Origin: a virus
Taxonomy: Duplodnaviria > Heunggongvirae > Uroviricota > Caudoviricetes
DNA: 34,274 nucleotides
Reading direction: 5' to 3' (one strand)
IMG/VR virus record: IMGVR_UViG_2913167280_000006
Location: 1 to 34,274 of that record
Shown: positions 1,369-22,293 of the stretch, piece after piece
Layout of the letters: every line of letters starts with the position of its first letter
Position numbering within the stretch: the stretch's first letter is position 1
Notes under the pieces: model-generated
Told to the model about the DNA's origin: nothing
The model's database searches: none
Seen by the model: the letters and a program-made list of their open reading frames with translations, nothing else
Translations under genes and position numbers: made by a program

Positions 1369-1444
1369 GCCGATATAGCTCAGTTGGTAGAGCAGCGCAT
1401 TCGTAATGCGAAGGTCGTAGGTTCGACTCCTATTATCGGCACCA
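1369..1444 (+). tRNA. thrW: tRNA-Thr (anticodon CGU)
   Basis: GCCGATATAGCTCAGTTGGTAGAGC...GGTTCGACTCCTATTATCGGCACCA seen directly: 7-bp acceptor stem, D-loop, anticodon loop with CGT, T-loop GGTTCGACTCC, encoded CCA. The integrase gene lies immediately downstream. Confidence 0.9.
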
Positions 1445-1458
1445 TTTAAATCAATAAG

Positions 1459-2622
1459 TTACACATCATTAGTACCTTCCTTATTTTTTGACTGGGACAA
1501 ATTTGGGACCGATGGGTTCAGGATCGAGTCTATTTGCCGTGCGTGTTCGGTAAGGTGATTAGGTGCAAGGTGAGCATATCGACGAACCATTTCGATAGAC
1601 TCCCAGCCTCCCATTTCCTGTAACACTGACAACGGGACTCCGGCTTGAACCAGCCAACTTGCCCAGGTGTGTCTCAAGTCGTGAAATCTGAAATCATCAA
1701 TACCAGCCCGTCTCAGCGCCGCTTTCCAGGCTGTGTTTGCGTCATACCGCATCTTCCTTACTGTTGGCGCTTTCGTTCCGTCTGGTTTGGTACAGCTTTC
1801 CTTGTACACAAATACCCAACGGTGATGATTCCCGATTTGTTTTTTCAATACGCGACATGCAGTATCATTCAGCGCAACGCCAATTGCGCGGTTTGATTTA
1901 CTCTCTTCCGGGTTTATCCATGCCACCCGGCGCTGCATATCTATTTGTTGCCATTCAAGGTTGATGATGTTCGAGCGTCTTAAGCCTGTTGCCAGTGCAA
2001 ATTCAACAACAGACTTTAATGGCTCCGGACATTCATCAATCAGCCTTTGTGCTTCATGGGGCTCCAGCCAGCGGATCCGTTTATTCTTTGGTTGAGGCAC
2101 TTTAATAATTGGTGCCTTATCCAGCATTTTCCATTCACGCTCTGCGGCTCTTAGTAGGGCCTTTATAAATGAAAGATGCGTAGCCTTCGTTGCAACGGAC
2201 GCTGGTTTTGGCGTGTATTCTGGAACAGGTTTCCCTTTTTTTCTGCACGCTTCTGCCCTGAGTTTCCAGTTTTCCTCATGACGCCGGTTCGTCATTTTCT
2301 GCATTGCTGAATAAATTTTTGATTCAGTAATGTCTCTTAGTTGCATTCCTGCGAAATGTTGAAGCCAGAATCCGATCCGGCTTTTGTCATCGTCCAGTGA
2401 TTTTTTATGTGCTTTCTCTTCAAGCCACCTGACACACGCTTCCTCGAACGTTATATCAGGTATTTCACCAAGTTTGCTGACCCGCCATGCTTCAGCCTTT
2501 AGCTTGTCATGGAGTTCTGTCGCCTGCCTTTTGTCCTTTGTTCCAAGAGACTGTTTAAATCTTTTACCGTTCGGCAATGTGAAACTGGCGTACCATATTT
2601 CACTTCTGCGGAAGAGTGACAT
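1459..2622 (-). CDS. int: Tyrosine-type site-specific integrase (P22 Int-like, thrW-specific)
   Basis: 387-aa ORF with the C-terminal catalytic region ...[40 protein letters not shown] (R..HxxR..Y); adjacent to tRNA-Thr, the known P22 attachment locus. Confidence 0.9.
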
Positions 2623-3901: not shown

Positions 3902-4603
3902 TCAGGAAACAACAGATTCCCCGTAAAACGCTACAGCCTGTGCAGACTGGGAGTCCATATCATCATGGAGATCTCTGGAGTATGGGAGGGAGTTGACTGT
4001 CGATATAAATATACTGTCATTTTCTAAAGTGAAAATTTCTGATTCGAGACTACCAATATCACCACGTACAGGATTAGTCCACCCACTAAACAGTAAAAAT
4101 CCCCATTCCTGAAAAAGCCCGGAATTCACTTCACGTTTTACATCATGAAACATTTCTCCCGTCAGTTCATCGAAAGGGACATTATTGATATCGCGTCGTG
4201 CCGGGACAGTCCCTTTTTTATCCTCAATCCAAAACAATGCATCGTAAAATCTGTCCGACGTTGCGGTACGAGGTTTAAAGAAGCGATAAGGTTTAATTAA
4301 ATAAGATGACACATTTTTCCCTGTGGCTTTATCCTTCGCAAAAATAACAAATGTTTTACCAATGCAACTTTCATCAATATCATTTGAAAATGACACCACG
4401 CCGTCCTGATTTACAGTCAGCGAATTGTCTCCCGCATTGGTGACAACACTCCAGTCCAACGTATTATTATTGACAACATCATTGTCAACCACCATCTGAA
4501 ATGTCGCGCCTGGAAATAATGTTTTCGGGAATGAACCATTAGCCATGTCTTTTTTTATATCGAACACATGGTGGCTCACTAGAACACCGGTAATTTTGGG
4601 CAT
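3902..4603 (-). CDS. Hypothetical protein, paralog A of an AT-rich two-member family in this prophage
   Basis: 233-aa ORF (MPKITGVLVSHHVFDIKKDM...LFPGATFQMVVDND...QEWG...AQAVAFYGES); AAGGAG ribosome-binding site upstream; AT-rich; shares motifs with the ORF at 16042..16719. Confidence 0.7.
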   Translation of the reverse strand: MPKITGVLVSHHVFDIKKDMANGSFPKTLFPGATFQMVVDNDVVNNNTLDWSVVTNAGDNSLTVNQDGVVSFSNDIDESCIGKTFVIFAKDKATGKNVSSYLIKPYRFFKPRTATSDRFYDALFWIEDKKGTVPARRDINNVPFDELTGEMFHDVKREVNSGLFQEWGFLLFSGWTNPVRGDIGSLESEIFTLENDSIFISTVNSLPYSRDLHDDMDSQSAQAVAFYGESVVS

Positions 4604-14880: not shown

Positions 14881-14975
14881 GGTTGACGATAACTAATATC
14901 TGGCGCTATATTCTGTGCGTTGCCGCAAAATCGGCACACGGGATTGGCGTCCCGGATAAGGTAATCGCGACTACT

Positions 14976-15000
14976 ACACGCCGCGAGCGTGTTTTTTATT
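14976..15000 (+). terminator. Intrinsic terminator
   Basis: ACACGC-CGCGA-GCGTGT hairpin followed by TTTTTTATT. Confidence 0.5.
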
Positions 15001-15155
15001 GTCGTAAGCATACGCACATCTGAATTATGGTGGGGCGTGTAGGGCCGACTTCGGTCGGGCCGGTTGATTACCCCGGTTACGCCAACCCTACATGTCTCAC
15101 CACCAAACTGATTGGCGTCAGCGGTGGTGGTTAACTTGATTTATAGGTAATCATC

Positions 15156-15761
15156 ATGAGCACACAACTAGTCTTTCATCAAACAAAATTCCATCCTGTT
15201 AAACACAACAACAGTATCTGGCTTACTGCCGTTGAGATTGCTCAAGCTCTCGGATATAAAAAATCTGATGCCGTAACTCAGATCTACGATCGAAATTCCG
15301 ATGAATTTAGGGCAGATATGACTGAGACCCTCAATTTGAGTGTCTCAGGGAACTACCAGAAAACAATACGCATTTTCTCCCTCCGTGGTGCCCATTTGAT
15401 CGCTATGTTCGCCCGCACTCCTGTAGCCAAAGAATTCCGCCGCTGGGTTCTGGATATTCTCGATCGAGAAGTTCAACAATCCCCAATCACAAAACAATTC
15501 ACTGATAACGAACTTTGCACACTCGCCTGGTTATGGCGAGCAGGGGATGTGATGTTAACCGCCTGCCAGAATGTTACTCCACTTCTTCAGGTTGCGGAGC
15601 ATCGCGAAGCCGGTCGCTTTACTTCTATTGAGCAAGAATATCCCCAGATACTACATAAGGCGCGCGAAATCCTTGCCAGAGAAACGGCACATGTAAGATT
15701 CCAGCCGTGGCAGGATGATAAGTGGAGCCGAGTATTGCCGCATTTGCGTTCTGAGCAGTAG
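15156..15761 (+). CDS. Bro-N domain protein (antirepressor-like)
   Basis: 201-aa ORF; the N-terminal 100 aa fit the Bro-N pattern (...IRIFSLRGAHLIAMFARTPVAKEFRRWVLDILDREV). Confidence 0.55.
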   Translation: MSTQLVFHQTKFHPVKHNNSIWLTAVEIAQALGYKKSDAVTQIYDRNSDEFRADMTETLNLSVSGNYQKTIRIFSLRGAHLIAMFARTPVAKEFRRWVLDILDREVQQSPITKQFTDNELCTLAWLWRAGDVMLTACQNVTPLLQVAEHREAGRFTSIEQEYPQILHKAREILARETAHVRFQPWQDDKWSRVLPHLRSEQ

Positions 15762-16041: not shown

Positions 16042-16719
16042 TCAGTCGATGGATTCTCCGTAGGATGCAACTGCCTGAGCGACGCAAAAACGATCAATAC
16101 ACTCTATTTCTCCATAATCACGCAGGCAATAATAAGTATTATTGTCTTTATCAAAAGCGTAAATGCTACAAATACCCTCAAGCTCACAACTTGCGTCCCA
16201 TCCACTATTAGATAACGTGCCCCATTCCTGGTAAAGCCCTGCGTTAACTTCTCGATTGATAATATGCGGTCCACTATAGTTATCATAATCGTAACTATAG
16301 ATGTCACGTGCCTCAGGAAAATTCCCGTTCATGTTTTCAATCCACGGTAAAATATCTTTAACTGAGTTATAAAGTTCAATGCTGTATTTGAAAAAACGCT
16401 TCACAATAAAAACATAGATGCCGGCAGATTTGTTTGTTGATTTATCAGTGGCGAAAATGACAAAAATCTTCCCAACGCACTTTTCATCTACCCCCGGAAA
16501 AGTTACTGTGCCATCCTGGCTAACCGCCAGAACATTATTGTCTGCATTAGTGCTACAGGTCCATTTTACCTTGTCATTATTAATAGGGTCATTATCAATG
16601 ACCATCTTGAAGGTTGCTCCTGGGAACAAACTGTTAGGGAAACAGTAACCACTCTCCATATCATTTTTAATATCATAGATATGGCTATCAACTAACACGC
16701 CTGTAATTTTGCTCATCAT
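16042..16719 (-). CDS. Hypothetical protein, paralog B of the AT-rich family
   Basis: ORF track 16042..16764; the start at MMSKITGVLVDSHIYDIKNDM matches the paralog A N-terminus, with shared LFPGATF, QEWG and AQAVASYGES motifs. Confidence 0.7.
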   Translation of the reverse strand: MMSKITGVLVDSHIYDIKNDMESGYCFPNSLFPGATFKMVIDNDPINNDKVKWTCSTNADNNVLAVSQDGTVTFPGVDEKCVGKIFVIFATDKSTNKSAGIYVFIVKRFFKYSIELYNSVKDILPWIENMNGNFPEARDIYSYDYDNYSGPHIINREVNAGLYQEWGTLSNSGWDASCELEGICSIYAFDKDNNTYYCLRDYGEIECIDRFCVAQAVASYGESID

Positions 16720-17230
16720 TGAACTCTCTTTGTTTGTTAAATAAAAAGTTTTATTCCTGAACAACGGAACACGCTGATATTAATGCAACCAATGAATTGT
16801 TGTTGTTATTTGGAGGTTATATAGTGGTATGAATGTTATTATGCGATGTCTCTGAGTGATGGGGTAAGGATTATATGATTCGCTTTTGAGATTTACCTAT
16901 GTCAGGCGTTGCTGTTCATGTTCGTCCCCGTTGTCAGTCTTCTTAGTCTGAGCTAATGTGATCATCAATGGGTTATCAGTTTTCTCTGAAGTTATATAAT
17001 TAATTGAGCGCCATAGCACCATGGGGCATTGTTGAATTTCATCTTCAATTGATTTTCCATAATCAACTCGCCATAATCATGTCATCGGAGCCTGAACACC
17101 TCCGGTGACTTCTGCGCTAAACGGGGACGTTTATGCGCACACACAATCCAAACTCTCTTCTCCCTTCACAGATGCAGAAATGCACCTGCGATTTTTTGCA
17201 TCCAACGTTTGACCTCTGCGGAGGTGAAGC

Positions 17231-18498: not shown

Positions 18499-18635
18499 TG
18501 TTTGAGTCTTATATGGCAGAACGTCTTCGCCGCCGCTGGGTGCGCCTGCGCTTATATCGTTTTCCCGGTTCTGTTTTGACCGATTACCGAATACTGAAGA
18601 ATTACGCCAAAACACTGAAAGGAGCTGCCGCATGA
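18495..18635 (+). CDS. ylcG: YlcG-like small protein (46 aa)
   Basis: [46 protein letters not shown]; overlaps the rusA stop and the Q start. Confidence 0.45.
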
Positions 18636-19321
18636 ATACCCAATATTTACAGTATGTTCGCGAGCAACTCATGGTGGCTACCGCTGATTTGAGCGGAGTA
18701 ACGAAAGGCCAGCTTGAAGCCTGGCTGGAGCATGCTCAATTTGATACTGGTACATACAAACGAAAGAAGCCGCGCATTCTGGATGAGGTAACTGGCAGGA
18801 TGATTACGCTGGATAATCCGCCGATTTCCGGTAAGCAGTCGTACGCAAAAGGTTCATCCATTGCACTGGTCAGCCAGGTTGAGTTCTCAACCTCTTCATG
18901 GCGCCGCGCGGTTCTGTCTCTTGATGAACATCAGAAAGCGTGGTTGCTGTGGAGTTACAGCGAAAGTGTTCGCTGGGAGCATCAGGTTGCCATAACGCAG
19001 TGGGCATGGAGCGAGTTTAAGACTCTGTTGGGTACCAGAAAAATTGCAGGTAAGACACTGGAACGTTTGAAGAAGTTGATCTGGCTGGCGGCACAGGATG
19101 TGAAGAACGAGCTGGCAGGGCGTAAGACCTATGAATACCAGGAGCTGGCATCACTGGTGGGAGTGACATCAAAAAACTGGTCTGAGACATTTACTGAACG
19201 CTGGGTTGCAATGAAGCACATTTTTCTACAGCTTGATAGCGAAGCTTTATTGCTTGTAACGAGAACACGTTCAAAACAAAAGACGACATTTTCACAGCAA
19301 AGTATTGCAAAACTGGATTGA
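18632..19321 (+). CDS. Putative late-gene antiterminator Q (non-lambda type)
   Basis: 229-aa ORF directly after rusA and ylcG and upstream of the lysis genes; assignment by position only. Confidence 0.5.
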   Translation: MNTQYLQYVREQLMVATADLSGVTKGQLEAWLEHAQFDTGTYKRKKPRILDEVTGRMITLDNPPISGKQSYAKGSSIALVSQVEFSTSSWRRAVLSLDEHQKAWLLWSYSESVRWEHQVAITQWAWSEFKTLLGTRKIAGKTLERLKKLIWLAAQDVKNELAGRKTYEYQELASLVGVTSKNWSETFTERWVAMKHIFLQLDSEALLLVTRTRSKQKTTFSQQSIAKLD

Positions 19322-19542
19322 AAGGCATATATTCCGTGTAAATCTGATATTTTGCCAATGTTGTATGTGCAACTGTTCGTAGGTGTCGTAAGGGGTGACT
19401 ATCCAATTTCCAGGATATAGATTATTCTGCAATAAAGGTTTTGGGAATGAAGGGGCGGCTCCCAAAAGATAACCGCCAAGTTGGTAACTTCGACTCGATA
19501 ATTGGTCTGGGACTCCAACCGTGTCGGCTGAGAGGTCGACGT

Positions 19543-20346
19543 CTATTTCTTTTGGGGAAGTGGATACTTTAAGCTAACATTTTGAGTTTCTATATCTCGT
19601 GGCCCTCGAGTTTTATCATAAAAATACCAGATATTAAATTTTCTCTCAGTGTGCCATGTATCATATTGCAAGTGATCCCAGCCTAAATATGAAGCAACAT
19701 AGTTTGATACTCTTATTTTGGCTTCAGATGAAGCTTTTCCTTGATATGCGCACATAACCGCACCTAAGAAAAAATCGGCTAGCTGAATGTTTTCAGATGC
19801 TTTAGAGTCTTTTGTCACTACACTGCTGATTATCCCTTTACGACCAAATTTTCTATTCAATATGTTATTGGCAATAACATTTAGTTCTTCATCGGCCTTT
19901 TTATAACGAGATGCGATAGGATCAACTTCAATCCTGAAGTAACTGTCTCTTTCAGGGTGTGCAGAAATTACAGAGCTAATTTTTGTGGTAATGAGATTTG
20001 TGAAGTGCTTTCTCCTTGCCAGGTCATAATCCCCATTATGAAATGCCTTGTTTACTATTGATTTTTCAACCACGATACAATGAAAAGCTAGCCAAGGAAC
20101 TCTAAAGAATAAGTCGATCAGCTCAAGATAAAATTCAGAGTATCTTTTTGAATGGGCTTTTTGCCATTTTATTTCTTCAAAAAAACCATGTTTGCTGCGT
20201 AGTTCTCTGATTAGTTGACAGAAATCCCCACGGCGTTGGTACTTCATCCACAGACTGCCAAAGCCGTAGAAACGTTGCCCATCAATGCCAGATTCATCGC
20301 AAGCAATATGCCAAATTAACTTACCAATGTTATCTTTTTCTGTCAT
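19543..20346 (-). CDS. DUF3800-like protein, encoded antisense between Q and the holin
   Basis: 267-aa AT-rich ORF with N-terminal CDESGIDG and C-terminal IQLADFFLGAV motifs that I associate with DUF3800. Confidence 0.6.
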   Translation of the reverse strand: MTEKDNIGKLIWHIACDESGIDGQRFYGFGSLWMKYQRRGDFCQLIRELRSKHGFFEEIKWQKAHSKRYSEFYLELIDLFFRVPWLAFHCIVVEKSIVNKAFHNGDYDLARRKHFTNLITTKISSVISAHPERDSYFRIEVDPIASRYKKADEELNVIANNILNRKFGRKGIISSVVTKDSKASENIQLADFFLGAVMCAYQGKASSEAKIRVSNYVASYLGWDHLQYDTWHTERKFNIWYFYDKTRGPRDIETQNVSLKYPLPQKK

Positions 20347-20562
20347 CTGCTGGTAATGCTCTTAGTCCTTAAAGCATGGTATTTAACCACACATGTAACT
20401 CATTGATAAAGATCGTTTTATGCAAGTTGCATGGATCGGCTTTTGAAGGCCATTCGCTTAGTTATAAGATTTTTTAGTTATTTTGAGTTGACTGTTTATA
20501 ACAATATTTCCCATGTAAGTTTTTAATCATTAGCGTCCCGGCCTTTCGTCGGCGGCGAAACA

Positions 20563-20880
20563 TTGGCTATTCATATGCACGAAAAAGAGAGCCTTGCCGG
20601 AGCGTTCTGGCTCGTTTTGCTGATCATCGCAGGTTGGGGCGGTCTGGTCCGCTATCTGATAGATGTGAAGCAAAGTAAAGCAACGTGGAGCTGGATAAAT
20701 GCTCTGGCTCAGATAGTGGTATCGGGATTCACCGGTGTTATTGGTGGCCTGATCAGTATCGAAAGTGGATTCAGTATTTACATGATTCTCGCGACAGCGG
20801 GGATTAGTGGTGCGATGGGCTCGGTTGCACTGACGTACTTCTGGGAACGACTGACAGGGGTGAAAAATGCAAAATCTTAA
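20563..20880 (+). CDS. Putative holin
   Basis: 105-aa ORF with predicted transmembrane segments (LAGAFWLVLLIIAGWGGLV, IVVSGFTGVIGGLI, IYMILATAGISGAMGSVAL) and a charged C-terminus; two Met codons close together at the start; directly before R. Confidence 0.6.
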   Translation: MAIHMHEKESLAGAFWLVLLIIAGWGGLVRYLIDVKQSKATWSWINALAQIVVSGFTGVIGGLISIESGFSIYMILATAGISGAMGSVALTYFWERLTGVKNAKS

Positions 20881-21832: not shown

Positions 21833-22126
21833 TTATTGTGAGCAATACACACGCGCTTCCAGCGGAGTATAAATGCCTAAAGTAATAAAACCGAGAAATC
21901 CATTTACGAATGTTTGCTGGGTTTCTGTTTTAACAACATTTTCTGCGCCGCCACAAATTTTGGCTGCATCAACAGTTTTCTCCTGTCCAATTCCCGAAAC
22001 GAAGAAATGATGGGTGATGGTTTCCTTTGGTGTTACTGCTGTCGGTTTGTTTCCAACAGTAAACGTCTGTTGAGCACATCCTGTAATAAGCATTGCCAGA
22101 GCGGCAGAAAACAACATTTTTTTCAT
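21833..22126 (-). CDS. bor: Bor lipoprotein (serum-resistance-associated)
   Basis: From the internal Met: MKKMLFSAALAMLITGCAQQTFTVGNKPTAVTPKETITHHFFVSGIGQEKTVDAAKICGGAENVVKTETQQTFVNG...; lipobox LITGC. Confidence 0.85.
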   Translation of the reverse strand: MKKMLFSAALAMLITGCAQQTFTVGNKPTAVTPKETITHHFFVSGIGQEKTVDAAKICGGAENVVKTETQQTFVNGFLGFITLGIYTPLEARVYCSQ

Positions 22127-22293
22127 CTTATTATCCTGCATTGTTAAAAACGGCAGAATCCTATGTGACAACAATTAAACGATAGTTAAATGGATTGATG
22201 AAAATTAAAACTATATAGGTGGATGCTCAGCCTATTGGAGGAGGGGGGGCACTCAGAATCCTGTGGAATGAAATAAACCGCTCTATCTGTCCA

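Follow-up and report, generated by a model that had tools for sequence, protein, structure and literature searches.

A lambda 6S-type leader RNA and a convergent DUF3800 gene in a prophage cargo cassette between the Q antiterminator and holin genes

Introduction

The segment between the gene for the late antiterminator Q and the lysis genes serves lambdoid phages as a site for accessory genes (morons); the stx genes of Stx phages and the nmpC/lc porin genes reside there, and bor is found after Rz. We analyzed this segment in a lambda-like prophage contained in a window of 34,274 nucleotides (nt), the complete IMG/VR virus record IMGVR_UViG_2913167280_000006 (Caudoviricetes). The interval 19322..20562, which is the full gap from the Q stop codon (19321) to the open reading frame (ORF) of the holin (20563/20575), harbors a gene for a DUF3800 protein and, abutting its end, a structured RNA related to the 6S leader of phage lambda. 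Like the Q-to-lysis morons, the cassette that carries them holds an accessory gene of other base composition, with its own predicted promoter, that late transcription should cross. It differs from these morons since its cargo is antisense to the late operon, since the product is RNase H-like rather than a toxin or porin, and since it travels with a late-type promoter-like element and a leader RNA of its own.

In phage lambda, the late promoter pR' is constitutive and gives rise to short terminated RNAs in lysogens; the 6S RNA made in this way is abundant, present in lysogens and bound by Hfq, has no assigned function, and comprises species of 194 nt and ~121 nt (PMC7547250; bioRxiv 10.1101/2024.10.31.621285). 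The cassette RNA shares with lambda 6S, and with the analogous short pR' RNAs of phages 21, 82, phi80, and P22 and the StxS RNA of Stx phages, a class of RNAs made constitutively in lysogens, the order of a pR'-type promoter followed by an RNA that ends in a terminator or terminator-like hairpin. It is unlike the lambda leader in that the separate strong tR' is missing, in that its last hairpin has a U-tract and abuts a convergent gene, and in that the RNA unit is also found away from any Q gene.

The DUF3800 domain is defined by an N-terminal DE and a C-terminal QxxD motif (as quoted in PMC7736814). The fold that we predict below for the prophage protein has been assigned before, with no activity attached to it, to the DUF3800 protein of retron type VII (PMC7736814), to the TPR-DUF3800 protein next to Cas12a2/a3, and to Csx32 of the Cas13 CASK loci. 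These DUF3800 proteins are likewise without demonstrated activity, and the earlier description of a family without established function still applies. Together with the PADLOC candidate class PDC-M04, these systems have in common with our locus the domain family and a linkage to defense loci and non-coding RNAs. Unlike them, the DUF3800 protein studied here stands alone, as the window encodes no partner of the reverse transcriptase, TPR, Cas, or kinase type. Weinberg et al. (2017) described the motifs DUF3800-I to DUF3800-XI, structured RNAs that lie beside DUF3800 genes on either strand and are sometimes followed by a terminator (PMC5737381). The cassette RNA resembles these motifs in being a structured RNA encoded beside a DUF3800 gene, and differs from them in being identifiable as a phage late leader that also exists without DUF3800.

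We propose that the insert is a mobile, two-unit prophage cassette whose DUF3800 product is probably directed against phages, is made in the lysogen, and is silenced by Q-driven antisense read-through. Taken as a whole, we judge this composite explanation to be evenly poised between right and wrong; its structural statements are much firmer than its functional ones.

Results

An inserted cassette with an antisense DUF3800 gene lies between Q and the holin gene

One long ORF is present in the gap, and it is set on the minus strand between the following landmarks.

18632..19321, plus strand: late antiterminator Q of the PF06323 type (Pfam Phage_antiter_Q, E=8.3e-95; phrog_304)
19366..20529, no strand: inserted cargo cassette, 1,164 bp, GC content 0.38, delimited by homology breakpoints against DUF3800-less prophages
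19543..20346, minus strand: gene for the DUF3800 / RNase H-like protein, 267 amino acids
20563..20880, plus strand: holin, the first lysis-cassette gene met by late transcripts (Pfam Phage_holin_3_3, E=8e-22; RefSeq start at 20575)

The original prediction of an AT-rich minus-strand gene agrees with these data, since the ORF has a GC content of 0.369 and the whole cassette one of 0.38, while values of 0.48-0.51 apply to Q and the lysis genes. The latter comprise a LydA-type holin, an endolysin-sized ORF, and Rz; the endolysin-sized ORF has no Pfam match and is annotated as glycoside hydrolase family 24 in related genomes. The predicted protein displays the sequence CDESG at residues 16-20 and IQLADF at residues 187-192, and a hidden Markov model search confirmed the family assignment that had been made from this signature: Pfam DUF3800 (PF12686) matches residues 16-197 with 42.7 bits (E=1.2e-10), well clear of its gathering score, which is 21. 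The protein also matches phrog_3732, a family of unknown function (E=6e-137), and NCBIfam provides no model for it. RefSeq labels the same gene 'DUF3800 domain-containing protein' in 44 of 5,426 complete Escherichia coli genomes, always between Q and holin; the carriers are prophages with differing packaging modules and, once, a phage-plasmid. A search of a large protein collection returned 501 relatives, ranging from 99% down to 52% identity and annotated as DUF3800 at most, and nearly all of those among the matches listed are full-length (260-290 amino acids). An ORF kept at full length across 501 database relatives is not a chance ORF.

The limits of the insert follow from two breakpoints. 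About 1,370 E. coli genomes possess this type of Q, and in those lacking DUF3800 homology ends at 19365; about 1,010 genomes possess this holin, and there homology resumes at 20530. Hence, the insert spans 19366..20529. In the DLP12-type prophages of O157:H7 and O25b:H4 strains the site is empty, with the same Q and holin genes 321 nt apart and no gene between them; the place of the cassette is taken by a 232-nt spacer with two strong plus-strand terminators. An O111 prophage has a different cargo between Q and holin. This survey of related prophages upholds the earlier view of the gap as a cargo site, and the presence/absence polymorphism at a fixed position, the deviant base composition, and the predicted promoter of its own characterize the insert as a lambdoid moron. 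The view that the locus holds a single gene, on the other hand, had to be abandoned, since the insert also brings a lambda-type late promoter-like element and a structured 6S-type RNA.

The cassette RNA folds into a pseudoknotted, GNRA-capped structure on the late strand

Loci that encode proteins of 76-86% identity share 92-96% identity over the ~100 nt directly beyond the DUF3800 stop codon, a stretch that is thus more strongly conserved than the gene. An alignment of this element revealed five helices, including a pseudoknot, with evident compensatory changes. In the window, the RNA begins 118 nt past the Q stop codon and has the following parts.

19439..19542, plus strand: 6S-type structured RNA core, ~104 nt (covariation and lambda match)
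19439-46, plus strand: P5a, pseudoknot partner of P5b
19454-58 with 19473-77, plus strand: P4
19460-67, plus strand: P5b, forming the pseudoknot with P5a
19480-84 with 19515-19, plus strand: P2
19492-94 with 19505-07, plus strand: P3
19521-29 with 19534-42, plus strand: P1, with the GNRA loop GAGA at 19530-33
19521..19556, plus strand: P1 hairpin and T-rich tract, a terminator-like RNA end (flagged by the terminator scan; hairpin -9.9 kcal/mol)

Three versions of the alignment support the helices. When built from sequence only, 84.7% of the pair cells were paired, in comparison with 32-50% when the partners were slid, and the covariation score was 0.272 against a maximum of 0.105; neither value was reached by any of 500 shuffles. 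A model-based alignment gave a score of 0.326 against a maximum of 0.104. The alignment of the late strand, which united 23 DUF3800-linked copies, 18 copies from Q leaders, and lambda, was paired at 89.0% of the cells (29-51% when slid), with double-sided changes at 19 of 30 pairs and a covariation score of 0.298 against a maximum of 0.122; none of 500 shuffles attained any of the five measures.

We rejected a 3' untranslated region structure on the DUF3800 strand because the wobble pairs, the wobbles of the pseudoknot, and the GNRA closure fit the late strand only. Read on the DUF3800 strand, the core helices of the Q-leader set would contain 19 A.C or C.A oppositions and 3 G.U pairs, and those of the DUF3800 set 13 and none, respectively. 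Within the pseudoknot, the internal non-Watson-Crick positions read on the late strand as G.U 9 times and never as A.C. The invariant 10-nt 'loop' of P1 resolves on the late strand into G.U, C-G, and U.G pairs that close a GNRA tetraloop, represented by GAGA (28), GUGA (8), GGGA (3), GAAA (2), and GGAA (1). Collectively, the wobble statistics and the GNRA closure place the RNA on the late strand. Folding of single sequences was uninformative for either strand (z-scores near 0), and the assignment of the outermost P1 pairs was dropped, as they found no support in the Q-leader set. Rfam, queried over positions 19200-20700 at gathering and at permissive thresholds (E<=10), gave no match for the flanks or the RNA, its DUF3800 motif models (at least DUF3800-I and -IX) included.

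The RNA is the core of the lambda 6S late leader and abuts DUF3800 genes of a phage-borne branch

A covariance model, R1, was built from the DUF3800-linked copies of the RNA; BLAST searches of a phage collection with the element had been too insensitive. R1 matched the late strand of phage lambda (NC_001416) at ~44591-44720 with 73.9 bits (E=4e-30), just past pR' (TTGACT-17-TAAATT) and before tR'. This position between pR' and tR' identifies the element as the core of 6S RNA, the classical late leader of lambda. A lambda transcript that runs from its start site up to the end of P1 would have the length of the 121-nt species.

Among DUF3800-bearing and empty-site loci, R1 detected 57 copies at E<=1e-26. 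Each DUF3800 locus concerned has a single copy, which in every case lies against the stop codon at a distance of 2-12 nt, over a range of 48-100% protein identity. R1 had no second match in the window, and loci with an empty site gave none at all. When IMG/VR was scanned by the RNA pattern alone, independently of the protein, 110 stretches were recovered, and 60 of the 109 loci analyzed are without DUF3800. In these 60 contigs (for instance L134, L137, and L093), the RNA is located ~100-150 nt after the stop codon of a Q gene of the PF03589 or DUF1133-like type and before the holin/endolysin genes, it runs in reverse orientation to the DUF3800-strand reading, and it often precedes a strong terminator on the late strand. 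As in the window, this is the position of a late leader, on the late strand after Q and a pR'-type promoter and ahead of the lysis genes. These 60 contigs and the lambda match led us to reject the idea of a DUF3800-specific element. That of an obligatory cofactor of the entire protein family is weakened by six relatives without a detectable 6S-like RNA, namely those of Sorangium, a metagenomic chromosome, Rheinheimera, one further chromosomal copy, and two Vibrio-type loci. As the RNA is common without the gene and these relatives lack the RNA, the coupling belongs to the phage-borne branch (48-100% identity) and not to the whole family. Outside lambdoid late regions, this branch keeps the promoter-like element, the structure, and the U-tract of the RNA.

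The T-rich tract at 19543-56 is the complement of the DUF3800 stop codon and the last Lys codons. A T-rich tail after P1 is confined to the copies linked to DUF3800, which on average have 6.9 T in 12 nt; the Q-leader copies average 2.4 and have a separate tR' instead. From the terminator-like hairpin and the T-tract, one would predict a short constitutive transcript that ends before the late genes and is read through in the presence of Q. In the group of 64-66% protein identity (L042-L052, L066, L069), the late strand has a strong bidirectional terminator in place of a promoter ahead of the RNA; the pseudoknot in this group is cut to TCAGG/CCTGA with no connecting loop, and this version may fold or act differently.

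Promoter-like elements predict antisense crossing of the DUF3800 gene by late transcripts

Three promoter-like elements bear on the transcription of the locus.

19305..19333, plus strand: promoter-like site of the resident Q module, TTGCAA-17-TATATT, probable pR' (sigma-70 scan; within the block shared with ~1,370 genomes)
19395..19423, plus strand: cassette-borne lambda-type promoter-like element for the 6S-like RNA, GTGACT-17-TAGATT (manual hexamers and comparison)
20372..20423, minus strand: conserved DUF3800 promoter block AAAACGATCTTTATCAA-N-TGTGGTTAAAT, with the -35 at 20404-20409 and the extended -10 at 20381-20389

A sigma-70 scan of 19100-20700 at default stringency flagged only the site at 19305..19333; it missed the DUF3800 promoter and the late-strand promoter of the cassette, both of which are based on comparative conservation and manual hexamer matching. 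The late strand carries two tandem promoter-like sites, the first belonging to the resident PF06323-type Q module and the second imported with the cassette. In most DUF3800-linked loci an element comparable to the second is found at a constant 24-35 nt upstream of the GGCGG of the RNA, e.g., TTGACA-18-TAAATT in L014 and TTGAAT-17-TATGTT in the P2-slot locus L053.

Upstream of the DUF3800 ATG, the minus strand has TTATCA as the -35, separated by a 17-nt spacer from TGn-TTAAAT as the extended -10, a pair that lies in the region 20347..20450 to which the original prediction had pointed for a promoter. The block is 82-95% identical at the nucleotide level in loci with 64-86% protein identity, including those at only 64%, and it is absent where a TIR gene precedes the DUF3800 gene in an operon. 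This pattern of conservation predicts a gene-specific promoter at DUF3800. The holin module starts 33-45 nt before the holin start, and no promoter-like site was seen there. With the Q-linked site to the left of the insert and none before the holin gene, late transcripts would have to cross the DUF3800 gene antisense, as had been anticipated. Across the loci, the antisense DUF3800 gene faces Q antiterminator genes in convergent orientation, and these belong to no fewer than three Pfam families, namely PF06323 (in the window), the lambda-type PF03589, and PF06530/DUF1133; on its other side lie holins or other cargo.

The DUF3800 protein has a predicted type 2 RNase H-like fold

In an alignment of 51 relatives (down to 52% identity), 42 columns are invariant, and these include D17, E18, E58, D142, E153, Q188, and D191; the N-terminal DE motif (D17-E18) and the C-terminal QxxD motif (Q188...D191) of DUF3800 are thus both present without exception. 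An AlphaFold model calculated from the alignment of the relatives (predicted local distance difference test, 91.1; predicted template modeling score, 0.90) has an RNase H fold, which in structure comparisons was nearest to type 2 RNase H, followed by PIWI and RuvC; the best Foldseek match was RNase HII (1eke, E=4e-5). The structural alignments to these nearest folds show 12-13% identity. At the level of sequence, a profile search of solved structures found no relative, no Pfam RNase H family matched, and the protein does not belong to the RNase HII family proper. It differs from type 2 RNase H (RNase HII/H2A) and from the PIWI domain of Argonautes in lacking a sequence-level relationship to them, and moreover in an additional conserved C-terminal region (residues ~200-267).

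Among the invariant carboxylates, D17 and E18 lie at the end of strand 1, D142 at the end of strand 4, and D191 in the helix after strand 5. Read from the secondary-structure map, these positions appear to agree with those expected of an active site in type 2 RNase H-like enzymes. The conserved carboxylates are the visible sign of a putative activity, namely the metal-dependent cleavage of the RNA in RNA/DNA hybrids.

Relatives of the DUF3800 gene occur in defense-associated surroundings

In IMG/VR, 68 loci encode relatives of the DUF3800 protein. An E. coli copy of 64% identity is positioned between the P2 portal gene and gpA, a slot that we take to be the tin/old defense hotspot. A Salmonella copy lies on an island beside a P2-type repressor and integrase, and a Vibrio copy directly follows a ThsB-type TIR gene (E=2e-123). 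In the group with 48-51% identity, DUF3800 is the second gene of a TIR-like + DUF3800 operon that adjoins the P2-type tail gene D; TIR- or ThsB-like genes were seen directly upstream on the same strand in L058 (5275..5973), L061 (5061..5942), and L075 (4135..4830). A two-gene TIR + DUF3800 arrangement, represented by P2-type prophages and by a Vibrio chromosome, is thereby suggested for part of the family. A 62% identical relative on a Rheinheimera-type contig (L192, 4066..6549) adjoins Lamassu-type genes (LmuB_C, MC3), in what looks like a defense-island context. The protein of the window itself matches the PADLOC candidate PDC-M04A (PDLC04353) with E=7.7e-35 over residues 13-243, and its relatives score alike. 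Taken together, the contexts of the relatives and the PDC-M04A match suggest an anti-phage role by guilt of location, which falls short of proof.

Further features of the prophage

The window holds several additional elements. A Bor lipoprotein gene (21833..22174, minus strand) lies antisense directly after Rz, the classical lambda moron position. A second AT-rich antisense ORF (GC content ~0.37-0.38) in the nin region (16042..16764, minus strand, 240 amino acids) may be cargo too; it has no Pfam or PADLOC match. Near the integrase end, an AT-rich ORF (3902..4603, minus strand) weakly matches invasin domain 4 (E=1.6e-8). Matches to the RNAs IsrK (61 bits) and C4 antisense RNA (74 bits), at 14921..14997 and 15023..15107 on the plus strand, are located directly upstream of a Bro-N/P22 antirepressor-type gene (ORF 15156..15761, plus strand); this lambdoid prophage thus contains an RNA-controlled antirepressor module in the style of P1/Gifsy. 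The integration site of the prophage is tRNA-Thr(CGU) (1369..1444), downstream of a proA-like gene of the aldehyde-dehydrogenase family, and its tyrosine integrase is encoded at 1459..2622 on the minus strand.

Discussion

The data reported here lend themselves to a regulatory model in which the cassette 19366..20529 would be a horizontally mobile element composed of two convergent transcription units. The first would be the minus-strand gene for an RNase H-like DUF3800 nuclease, expressed in the lysogen from a dedicated extended -10 promoter. The late-strand unit would consist of the lambda-type promoter and the ~104-nt 6S core RNA, with the P1 hairpin and the U-tract that overlaps the end of the DUF3800 gene serving as a late terminator equivalent to tR'. 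In the lysogen, late-strand transcripts should stop at the P1 hairpin, thereby yielding a ~120-nt 6S-like RNA, and the DUF3800 protein would be made. Upon induction, Q-modified RNA polymerase would pass the hairpin, cross the DUF3800 gene antisense, and reach the holin and lysis genes; this read-through should turn the cargo gene off during the lytic growth of the phage itself. The DUF3800 protein would most likely serve the lysogen as an anti-phage nuclease, by either superinfection exclusion or abortive infection.

Several observations weigh against this model. With four wobble pairs and a hairpin energy of -9.9 kcal/mol, P1 is a modest terminator, and the resident Q belongs to a family different from that of lambda Q, which makes the role of the second, cassette-borne promoter less clear. 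The 64-66% identity group has a terminator, not a promoter, before the RNA on the late strand, and antisense silencing offers no reason why the RNA unit is kept in Q-less, P2-type contexts. As to defense, no neighbor matched the PDC-M04B models, either in the window or in the related loci, and PDC-M04 is itself a candidate class.

An alternative that we regard as improbable, albeit not to be dismissed lightly, is that the 6S-type RNA works in partnership with the DUF3800 protein, beyond its part as terminator or regulator, be it as an RNA antitoxin or decoy, in the logic of type III toxin-antitoxin systems, or as a recognized pattern. In the latter version, the nuclease would bind or cleave the late leader (or an R-loop) of invading lambda-type phages and thereby block all of their late gene expression. 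The single RNA copy that abuts the stop codon in each of the 57 loci speaks for a partnership, as does its conservation of 92-96% in comparison with 76-86% for the gene. This linkage persists in the P2 portal-gpA slot, on the Salmonella island, and in the TIR-DUF3800 operons by P2-type tail genes, and outside lambdoid regions the RNA retains its promoter-like element and compensatory base changes. DUF3800 genes are furthermore associated with at least 11 structured RNA motifs (PMC5737381), and the nearest folds are those of enzymes that act on RNA-containing duplexes or with nucleic-acid guides. Against a partnership stand the 60 phage contigs and lambda itself, in which the RNA occurs without DUF3800, the relatives of Sorangium, Rheinheimera, other chromosomes, and Vibrio that lack the RNA, and the location of RNA and gene on opposite strands. 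The RNA is also devoid of the tandem repeats of type III antitoxins, being present as one copy per locus; a ToxIN-like system is not what we see, as this single RNA is downstream of and convergent with the gene and the protein is RNase H-like and not ToxN-like. The more specific proposal that the lambda 6S core is the cognate RNA of the DUF3800 nuclease, either as its inhibitor or as the pattern of a lambda-type phage, we consider unlikely.

Less likely still, in our estimate, is a non-defense RNase H-like enzyme that aids the lysogen or the phage through R-loop removal, processing of late-region RNA, or another role in host physiology. The RNase H2-like predicted fold would suit such an enzyme, some relatives reside among ordinary chromosomal genes, e.g., between a tRNA-synthetase-like gene and pcnB, and our literature search found no experimental report of a defense phenotype for PDC-M04 or this protein. 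These points are countered by the repeated siting of the gene in phage cargo and defense hotspots next to TIR, ThsB, and Lamassu genes, by its sporadic occurrence (44 of 5,426 E. coli genomes), and by its low GC content and presence/absence polymorphism, both of which are typical traits of accessory genes. That the gene is a neutral or decaying passenger, with an RNA linkage that stems from repeated insertion or recombination at a conserved leader, is very improbable: although a 6S-type leader could act as a linker for homologous recombination between mosaic phage modules, the ORF is intact with 42 invariant residues in 51 relatives down to 52% identity, its promoter is conserved, and the DUF3800-linked RNA copies show compensatory changes and a junction-specific U-tract.

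The annotation of the DUF3800 gene and the cargo site between Q and the lysis genes are already known, and the gene alone in this slot would be a modest addition to the inventory of prophage accessory genes and untested defense candidates. By contrast, both the pseudoknotted, GNRA-capped structure of the 6S leader and its tail-to-tail coupling with DUF3800 genes appear to be undescribed in the literature consulted and in Rfam, a comparison that does not cover those of the Weinberg motifs II-XI that lie outside Rfam. The strong covariation across many lambdoid phages argues that the structure of the orphan 6S RNA is under selection. At the same time, the RNA is joined tail-to-tail, through a junction-specific U-tract, to RNase H-like genes that are known to accompany structured RNAs, and this coupling makes two questions testable in E. 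coli: which role lambda 6S plays, and how DUF3800 proteins deal with RNAs. The locus is, in addition, a simple candidate example of the silencing of prophage cargo by Q-dependent antisense read-through. Should the 6S core prove to be the cognate RNA of the DUF3800 nuclease, this would provide a function for the 6S-type RNAs, which have been without one for ~50 years, and for the associations of DUF3800 genes with RNAs in bacteria.

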